From: Escherichia coli
GTDB lineage: Bacteria; Pseudomonadota; Gammaproteobacteria; Enterobacterales; Enterobacteriaceae
NCBI RefSeq assembly: GCF_030013205.1
Contig: NZ_CP122648.1
DNA length: 64,000 bases
Strand: one strand, 5' to 3'
In this document: positions 11,759-12,397 of the stretch, piece by piece
Numbering within the stretch: position 1 is the stretch's first letter
How the letters are laid out: each line of letters starts with the position of its first letter
The notes under the pieces: generated by a model
Databases searched by the model: none
The model's input: the letters and a program-made list of their open reading frames with translations, nothing else
What the model was told of the DNA's origin: nothing
Translations under genes and position numbers: made by a program

Positions 11759-12196
11759 TTAAACCATCACCAGCGATAACTCTTTGCCAAGCGCCTTAGC
11801 CGCAAGCTGGACGGCGTCGATTTTTGTCGCATGGTGCAAGTTAAATAAGCGAGTAATTTCCTGTTTAGGTTTGCCAATTCGCCTGGCTAACTCTTGCTGA
11901 GTGATTTCTGACTGTAAAAAAGCATTTAACAGCAATACTTTAGAGGCGACGCTCAAAGGCACTTCAATAAAGTGATCGTGACTATTTAATGGCGAAGGTA
12001 AAGGGATAAGCTCGTTATCTTCAAAATAAAAATCAAATGCGGTCAGTAAAGCATCTTTTGCCGCTTCCATCGCTTCAGCGACAGTTTCGCCCTGGGTCAA
12101 CGCTTCAGGGATATCCACAAAAGAAACCATATAACCGCCTTCCGGCGCGGGTGTAAGAGTGACGGGATAACGCATAATTTCGACTGTCTCTCGCAT
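11759..12196 (-). CDS. hicB: HicB antitoxin (type II TA)
   Basis: 145 aa ORF (alternative start at 12175); C-terminal HTH-like region; immediately downstream of hicA. Confidence 0.8.
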   Translation of the reverse strand: MRETVEIMRYPVTLTPAPEGGYMVSFVDIPEALTQGETVAEAMEAAKDALLTAFDFYFEDNELIPLPSPLNSHDHFIEVPLSVASKVLLLNAFLQSEITQQELARRIGKPKQEITRLFNLHHATKIDAVQLAAKALGKELSLVMV

Positions 12197-12220
12197 GTCA
12201 TTAACCTTTTTAATTGGCGA

Positions 12221-12397
12221 TTAACTCAAACCGAGTTGCTTCAGGATTGCTTTACGCAATGGTTCTTTTATCTCATCATTGGGGTGACGCGGCATGACAC
12301 TGCGTCGCCCTTGAAACCTGAGTTTCAAATGGTTGCTGCCATTCGCCACATCGACGCCCTGAGATTCGAGCCAACGTCTGAACTCGCTTTGTTTCAC
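12221..12397 (-). CDS. hicA: HicA mRNA-interferase toxin (type II TA), 58 aa
   Basis: Hand-translated: GTG at 12397, TAA at 12221-12223, protein ends ...AILKQLGLS; not in the ORF track because under 60 aa. Confidence 0.75.
   Translation of the reverse strand: MKQSEFRRWLESQGVDVANGSNHLKLRFQGRRSVMPRHPNDEIKEPLRKAILKQLGLS

Follow-up and report, generated by a model that had tools for sequence, protein, structure and literature searches.

Organization of the hicAB locus

The subject of this analysis is a pair of adjacent minus-strand genes in a 64,000-nucleotide stretch of Escherichia coli DNA (contig NZ_CP122648.1; the whole stretch is called the window below, and positions are counted from its first letter). 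The first gene, hicA (12221..12397), starts with GTG at 12397-12395, ends with TAA at 12223-12221, and encodes a HicA mRNA-interferase toxin of 58 amino acids (aa); the second, hicB (11759..12196), encodes the HicB antitoxin and repressor (145 aa, read from the ATG at 12196). Together they almost certainly represent the chromosomal hicAB type II toxin-antitoxin operon of E. coli, with both genes intact and in its usual place. The genes are arranged bicistronically, with hicA upstream of hicB on the same strand and a spacer of 24 nucleotides (nt) between the hicA stop codon (12221) and the hicB ATG at 12196; an alternative hicB ATG lies at 12175.

A first-pass annotation of this DNA had described a frame of 58 aa directly upstream of hicB as the toxin gene of a toxin-first hicAB module, and the frame was found exactly as claimed. 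The assignment to a type II module is upheld by Pfam matches above the curated cut-offs, by identity or near-identity to the crystallised proteins of E. coli K-12, and by the RefSeq annotation of identical DNA: the 1101-bp region around the module is 100% identical to that of E. coli O139:H1 W13-16, where RefSeq places hicA (WP_063085535.1) and hicB between ydcR and yncJ. This placement, which had also been proposed before, agrees with the open reading frames (ORFs) and domains of the window. By the order of its genes, with hicA first, and a HicB with a C-terminal helix-turn-helix (HTH) domain, the module corresponds to class 3 of Gerdes.

It is true, as stated earlier, that hicA is missing from the ORF track of the window. 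The default minimum of the ORF program is 60 aa, and a gene of 58 codons falls below it, so the absence is an artefact of the length threshold. With the same minimum an antisense ORF of 65 aa (12236..12433, plus strand) is listed; we rejected it as a gene, as its frame is interrupted by a stop codon in Citrobacter.

Identity and conservation of the two proteins

Searches with hidden Markov models bore out both family assignments. HicA matches the Pfam model PF07927 (HicA_toxin) over residues 5-57 with 35.2 bits (cut-off 27, E = 1.4e-8), and is a small single-domain protein whose length lies within the family range of 50-100 aa. In HicB, the N-terminal toxin-binding domain (residues 10-74; 11975..12169, minus strand) matches PF15919 (HicB_lk_antitox) with 32.8 bits (cut-off 27), and the C-terminal HTH domain, responsible for DNA binding and dimerisation (residues 95-141; 11774..11914, minus strand), matches PF01381 (HTH_3) with 31.4 bits (cut-off 23). 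The PHROGs database recognizes both proteins, as PHROG 497 "HicB-like" and PHROG 353 "toxin". PADLOC returned only marginal matches (E at least 0.002) to the C-terminal half of HicB, which support no assignment to a known defence system.

Comparison with solved structures is more specific. HicB is identical to PDB 6U0I_A in 145 of 145 residues and to 6HPB_B in 138 of 138, these being the 145-aa and the 138-aa forms of the protein. HicA aligns over its full length to 6HPB_A with 56 of 58 residues identical, the differences being H29Q and C40N. The only other match to a solved structure is that of HicB to 5YRZ (E = 0.006). The fold of 6HPB_A is an alpha-beta-beta-beta-alpha double-stranded RNA-binding domain (PMC10865869), which we assign to the HicA of the window on the basis of the 56/58 identity; the N-terminal domain of HicB adopts a partial RNase H fold and contacts HicA (PMC10865869). 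The residue with a catalytic role in E. coli HicA, His23 (PMC11594946, PMC8138530), is encoded here by the CAT codon at 12329..12331 (minus strand), and is invariant, together with 43 other residues, among nine HicA sequences from Escherichia and Citrobacter.

Both reading frames are under purifying selection. The ratio of nonsynonymous to synonymous substitution rates (dN/dS), calculated against orthologs from Escherichia and Citrobacter, is 0-0.09 for hicB and 0.08-0.21 for hicA. The latter values bear on whether the 58-aa frame is conserved at all, and thus on the proposal that it is an ORF by chance, or what is left of a dead gene, with hicB as the only real gene of the pair in this strain. 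Such a proposal draws on the shortness of the frame, its GTG start, its position below the 60-aa limit of the ORF list, and the fact that more than one third of complete E. coli genomes, and some sister species as well, carry hicA only as a pseudogene or have it deleted. Against it stand a full-length frame with His23 and a strong ribosome-binding site, the 56/58 identity to a crystallised toxin, the Pfam score above the cut-off, the dN/dS values, and the absence from the window of both the 22-bp and the 445-bp deletion described below. The proposal is thus refuted already at the level of sequence, and we regard it as practically discounted.

The start of hicB is ambiguous within 12175-12196: RefSeq uses the in-frame ATG at 12175 (138 aa), and the upstream ATG at 12196 yields 145 aa. 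An (A/G)AGG motif is conserved 8-9 nt before the ATG at 12196, and Escherichia and Citrobacter both preserve the reading frame of the seven extra codons. Each of the two forms has been crystallised; the 145-aa start is the conserved one.

The hicA allele of the window

The two HicA residues that differ from K-12 are encoded within 12278..12313 (minus strand): codon 29 is CAA (12313-12311) and codon 40 is AAT (12280-12278), so that the window has Q29 and N40 where the K-12 protein has His29 and Cys40. These are the only two codons that change a residue relative to K-12. At the nucleotide level hicA differs from K-12 in 9 of 177 positions, seven of them within codons 29-43 and five of the nine synonymous, and hicB in 7 of 435, all synonymous; the synonymous substitution rate (dS) is 0.18 for hicA and 0.07 for hicB. 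In a survey of 5426 complete E. coli genomes, which is the scope of all counts for this species given here, alleles at least 99% identical to the hicA of the window at the nucleotide level were found in 178, and the K-12-type is the majority.

We considered whether the Q29/N40 form of HicA is functionally altered, with weaker toxicity or changed binding of HicB, so that the module would differ from that of K-12. The clustering of seven of the nine nucleotide differences in codons 29-43, the higher dS of hicA compared to hicB, and the presence of four different amino acids at residue 40 among nine relatives could be taken in its favour. However, intact orthologs vary at both sites (Q29 occurs also in the loci L087 and L020, and residue 40 may be S or G), the catalytic and the other invariant residues are unchanged, and most of the nucleotide changes, five of nine, are silent. 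Among the nine Escherichia and Citrobacter sequences position 29 is H, Q or R and position 40 is C, N, S or G; since both positions vary among relatives, Q29 and N40 are substitutions at naturally variable sites, and we find a functional alteration very unlikely.

Candidate promoter and operator, and ribosome-binding site

The region upstream of hicA contains a set of elements. A ribosome-binding site, GGGAGG (12402..12407, minus strand), lies 4 nt upstream of the hicA GTG; it is invariant in six Escherichia sequences and slightly changed in two Citrobacter loci. Further upstream, TGATATACT (12416..12424, minus strand) resembles an extended -10 element (TGn followed by TATACT), and a TATAnT at the same spacing is present in most of the Escherichia and Citrobacter sequences and deleted in one Escherichia locus (L008). 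We propose TGATATACT as a candidate -10 element of P2, the HicB-repressed promoter, whose transcripts would begin at about 12409, bordering the ribosome-binding site.

An inverted-repeat search identified a perfect palindrome with 7-bp arms, GTAAACA-ATAA-TGTTTAC (12430..12447), which overlaps the -35/spacer region of P2. Its arms have 0-1 mismatch each in the relatives (four other Escherichia and four Citrobacter loci), and the spacer and the flanks diverge. An operator, hicO, has been described at P2 of E. coli hicAB (PMC11594946, PMC10865869), and the palindrome fits it, as a candidate operator for the HTH dimer of HicB.

In K-12, an additional upstream promoter, P1, dependent on CRP-S sites and Sxy, expresses both genes (PMC11594946, PMC10865869, PMC6957337, PMC8138530). 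P1 is presumably present in the window as well, because the region upstream of hicA is nearly identical to that of K-12. Between yncJ and hicA we found a 33-bp block, TTATTATTCAGTTTTGCAAATTAGCGCAAAGAA (12533..12565), that is invariant in six Escherichia sequences of different species; it is possibly a part of P1 or of the yncJ promoter. The best match to the CRP-S consensus falls in this block and is a poor one (12/20).

No result contradicts the identification of the locus. The HicA of the window departs from the studied K-12 protein at the two positions discussed above. NCBIfam contains no model that matches HicA or HicB, which reflects a gap in the library and does not contradict the Pfam result. 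The search for CRP-S and CRP consensus sites upstream of hicA gave as its best hit the 12/20 match just mentioned, its right half-site being displaced by 2 bp, and P1 was not placed. Finally, P2 has no good -35 element and was missed by a generic sigma-70 scan, so the promoter positions given here are deduced ones; the same scan returned no terminator, and four promoter-like matches close to the chance expectation.

Proposed working of the module and comparison with known systems

Detailed knowledge of hicAB, of its structure as well as its regulation, exists already. The identities of the genes and domains, the architecture of operator, -10 element and ribosome-binding site, the purifying selection and the distribution are observed here; the RNase activity, the neutralisation and the two-promoter logic are carried over from the K-12 literature by homology. 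In K-12, HicA alone causes translation-independent cleavage of mRNA and growth arrest (PMC11594946, PMC10865869). By homology, the HicA of the window would be a small RNase of the double-stranded RNA-binding fold that cuts mRNA without a need for translation, using His23. The HicB dimer would repress the hicA-proximal P2 by binding to the palindromic operator through its HTH domain. Transcripts from P2 would begin too near the hicA ribosome-binding site to allow synthesis of HicA and would yield only HicB; a start at about 12409 leaves almost no leader before the ribosome-binding site, which would explain the missing translation of HicA. Surplus HicA would then pull HicB off the operator and thereby restore the antitoxin, in line with reports that excess HicA frees HicB from the operator (PMC11594946, PMC10865869, PMC6957337, PMC8138530). 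The upstream, CRP- and Sxy-dependent P1 would drive both genes.

The closest known system is HicAB of E. coli K-12 (hicA/yncN and hicB/ydcQ; PDB 6HPB, 6HPC and 6U0I), which has the same locus, the same flanks and the same gene order, and, besides the protein identities reported above, identical operator arms, -10 element and ribosome-binding site. The window differs from it, apart from H29Q and C40N, in the spacer of the operator (ATAA instead of CTAA) and in 2 nt just upstream. HicA3B3 from Yersinia pestis and HicAB from Burkholderia pseudomallei are likewise toxin-first, with autorepression by HicB via palindromes that overlap the promoter and with repression destabilised by excess HicA (PMC11594946). 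In contrast to the window, the HicB of B. pseudomallei possesses a ribbon-helix-helix domain and rearranges upon binding of HicA (PMC11594946). Neither of these two systems appeared among the solved-structure matches of the window proteins.

The arrangement with two promoters has been studied only for E. coli (PMC11594946). A similar logic, with an upstream promoter for both genes and a downstream promoter for the antitoxin only, which is repressed by the antitoxin or internal, is found in toxTA of Haemophilus influenzae and mqsRA of E. coli (PMC6957337, PMC8138530). Their toxins (RelE/ParE-like and MqsR, respectively) are unrelated to HicA, so this is an analogy and not membership in one family.

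Distribution and decay in E. coli

A check of presence or absence across E. coli had been suggested; we found the same position occupied nearly throughout the species. Of the 5426 genomes, 5416 contain at least a portion of the 1101-bp region, and 4217 contain 80% of it or more. A match to hicA was obtained in 4253 genomes, being full-length in 3442 and truncated in about 811, and about 1160 genomes have the flanks and no hicA. A full-length hicA is thus present in at most ~63% of complete E. coli genomes.

Two deletions recur among the defective loci, both with intact counterparts in the window. The first, of 22 bp (12259..12280, minus strand, by alignment with RM9245), shifts the frame of hicA and defines a pseudogene class; it explains the truncated cases sampled, which RefSeq annotates as frameshifted "mRNA interferase", and in the K-12 allele the deleted interval is flanked by a TGCG direct repeat. 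The second, of 445 bp (11998..12442, minus strand, by alignment with CU42ET-1), removes half of the operator, the whole hicA and codons 1-66 of hicB, and was found in sampled cases without hicA. In one sampled genome a bigger deletion extends also over yncJ and a part of rlhA. The two recurrent deletions account for most losses of hicA, the shares of the classes among all genomes being extrapolated from evenly spaced sample rows. The genomes without hicA carry deletion remnants (the 3' part of hicB) or the larger deletion, and are not empty sites.

hicA is lost far more often than hicB: about 811 genomes pair an intact hicB with a frameshifted hicA. Separate mutations that inactivate hicA occur also in other species of Escherichia and Citrobacter that retain a full-length hicB. 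Among representatives of sister species, hicA is broken by a frameshift in L007, by a stop codon at W9 in L008 and by frameshifts in L018.

Origin of the module

The module stands out from its surroundings by composition. The GC content of 11681-12618 is 43.3%, compared to a mean of 50.1% for the window (standard deviation 3.4), and only 4.2% of segments of the same size reach so low a value; the GC content of third codon positions is 0.44 in hicB versus 0.53-0.58 in ydcR, ydcS and rlhA. The base composition of the module thus deviates from that of its flanks.

In order to follow the locus beyond E. coli, we scanned one genome per species for YdcR, which gave 80 loci (denoted here by L and a number), and searched these with hicAB using tblastn. 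hicAB lies directly upstream of ydcR in the four close representatives labelled as Escherichia (L006-L009). In the 18 loci of the Citrobacter clade (L010-L027, one of them labelled Raoultella) both genes are full-length in three and hicA is frameshifted in one, five retain remnants of hicB, and nine have neither gene, so that the module is present, intact or as a remnant, in nine of the 18. None of the other 58 representatives, which are more distant and comprise among others Enterobacter, Klebsiella, Raoultella, Kluyvera, Lelliottia and Leclercia, has it next to ydcR. Alignment of a filled Citrobacter locus (L010) with empty ones (L019, L023) reveals a clean insertion/deletion of ~860 bp, bounded by the 10-bp direct repeat CATAACAGTT, which is present as a single copy at the empty site.

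Relatives of HicB are encoded on mobile elements, with 50-57% identity on phages of Cronobacter and Moraxella and up to 52% on plasmids of other genera, which fits the known mobility of the family. Homologs from Cronobacter phage ENT39118, the Moraxella Mcat phages and plasmids of Variovorax and Arsenophonus possess the same full-length HicB-HTH architecture, with 43-57% identity over 83-97% of the protein. Unlike these, the copy in the window is chromosomal, in a fixed position and with no mobility genes nearby: no integrase or insertion sequence element was found near hicAB, and no tRNA gene in the 64-kb window.

The low GC content, the phage- and plasmid-borne relatives of HicB, and the rarity of the hicA allele of the window might suggest that hicAB is a recent, strain-specific, horizontally acquired islet. 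Such an origin is highly improbable, as the position is occupied in nearly all E. coli, in other representatives labelled Escherichia and in some Citrobacter, HicB is 100% identical to that of K-12 with collinear flanks, no integrase, insertion sequence element or tRNA is close by, and the genomes without hicA retain a 3' remnant of hicB. The earlier description of a small horizontally acquired insertion thus stands for an old event, in agreement with the GC content, the patchiness across genera and the empty sites in Citrobacter, and fails for a strain-variable islet within E. coli (5416/5426). From the comparison of loci, the acquisition of hicAB looks old; the module was inserted among the regulatory sequences in front of ydcR, and some Citrobacter share it.

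Repeats upstream of ydcR

A repeated motif, (C/T)ATAACAGTT, bounds hicAB in Citrobacter and occurs upstream of ydcR in most Enterobacteriaceae among the 80 loci. In 65 of the 76 non-Escherichia representatives the ydcR-proximal copy is found about 62-88 nt ahead of ydcR, and an inverted copy often comes after the left one. The window has a degenerate copy, ATTACAGTT (11751..11759, minus strand), whose first base is also the final base of the hicB stop codon and which lies 71-79 nt upstream of ydcR; the motif positions in the window are 11751-11759 and about 12553-12560.

Other cargo was found between two copies of the motif: a TacA+GNAT toxin-antitoxin pair in Trabulsiella, a Stealth-family protein in C. 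werkmanii, and a YmcF-like zinc-ribbon gene in Enterobacter, the latter in all five aligned loci. The Enterobacter loci with a single motif were rejected as empty sites, as alignment shows the same YmcF-like gene inside. Two known kinds of recombination sites were compared with the ATAACAGTT repeats by eye and rejected: integron attC (RYYYAAC/GTTRRRY), whose cores do not fit, and Xer dif-like sites, where the spacer of the dif type would be just 3 nt.

Regulators of the MocR type bind direct and inverted repeats, and a cydAB-like operon is a predicted target of YdcR in other bacteria (PMC5320631 and its supplement). We found a cydAB-like operon between yncJ/rlhA and ydcR in the seven non-Escherichia loci for which ORFs were called. 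In Citrobacter, Klebsiella and Enterobacter (L010, L013, L019, L030, L038, L048) it appears as a cytochrome bd-like pair of 467 aa and 336 aa, divergent from ydcR, in an interval of ~2.4 kb between yncJ/rlhA and ydcR or hicAB. Escherichia has lost this operon, and yncJ is now 221 bp from hicA. Because MocR regulators bind such repeats and the adjacent operon is a predicted YdcR target, the ATAACAGTT repeats are likely operator boxes of YdcR. On this simplest reading, hicAB was inserted long ago within the regulatory region of ydcR and cydA'.

Alternatively, small cassettes of different kinds could have been placed upstream of ydcR by a site-specific insertion process, with the CATAACAGTT repeats as its attachment sites or target duplications. 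The clean difference between filled and empty sites, with one repeat copy at the empty site, the variation of cargo by genus (hicAB, TacA+GNAT, Stealth, YmcF-like) and the inverted copy that often follows the left motif copy would be explained in this way. The retention of the ydcR-proximal copy in 65 of 76 representatives, single-copy loci included, is what one expects of the regulator's own operator, and the repeat binding of MocR proteins together with the predicted cydAB-like target (PMC5320631) argues in the same direction; moreover, the Enterobacter gene is present in all five aligned loci, ORF calling revealed no recombinase gene in the cargo intervals, and the motif is unlike attC cores or dif sites. 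We therefore regard site-specific insertion as unlikely and retain the interpretation of the repeats as YdcR boxes. The more general possibility, that small cassettes have repeatedly entered the short interval upstream of ydcR in different Enterobacteriaceae, with the repeats as sites of recombination or target duplication, is quite unlikely in our view; it would cover hicAB in Escherichia and Citrobacter, TacA/GNAT in Trabulsiella, Stealth in Citrobacter werkmanii and the YmcF-like gene in Enterobacter, each with copies of (C/T)ATAACAGTT at its borders.

Neighboring genes and other features of the window

The genes around hicAB are ydcS, ydcR, yncJ, rlhA and sutR. ydcR (10274..11680, minus strand) encodes a protein with GntR and aminotransferase domains, yncJ (12619..12849, plus strand) a DUF2554 protein, and rlhA/ydcP occupies 12941..14944 (minus strand). 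Farther from the module, at 6899-6929 (junction ~6922-6929), the window has lost a segment of ydcV, an ABC-transporter permease gene; the missing part measures about 680 bp and is kept in nearly all E. coli genomes. ydcU leads directly into the final ~120 bp of ydcV, and 8 bp overlap where the two parts meet. ETEC1748 (NZ_CP122719) has a 100% identical junction; elsewhere among the genomes sampled the match is split over 1131 bp.

A search against Rfam identified the sok antitoxin RNA of the hokB/sokB type I toxin-antitoxin locus (27718-27869, plus strand, 113.8 bits) and the small RNA RydC (28429-28492, plus strand, 92.5 bits). According to the annotation of the near-identical W13-16, the window contains also hokB, ortT and yncL, small genes for toxins or stress functions, so that several toxin-type genes lie below the cut-off of the ORF track. 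In W13-16, the genes ydcO (~15603-16774 of the window) and ynbD (~37735-39026) are annotated as frameshifted pseudogenes.

Implications

An ORF cut-off of 60 aa conceals many type II toxins, and the absence of hicA from the ORF track is a reminder of this. As for the biology of the module, the comparison of genomes indicates that hicAB of E. coli has a fixed position and varies by decay, with deletions that remove the toxin first. The hypervariable residue 40 of HicA and the repeated loss of the toxin with retention of HicB may reflect selection acting on the toxin, e.g. by phage.

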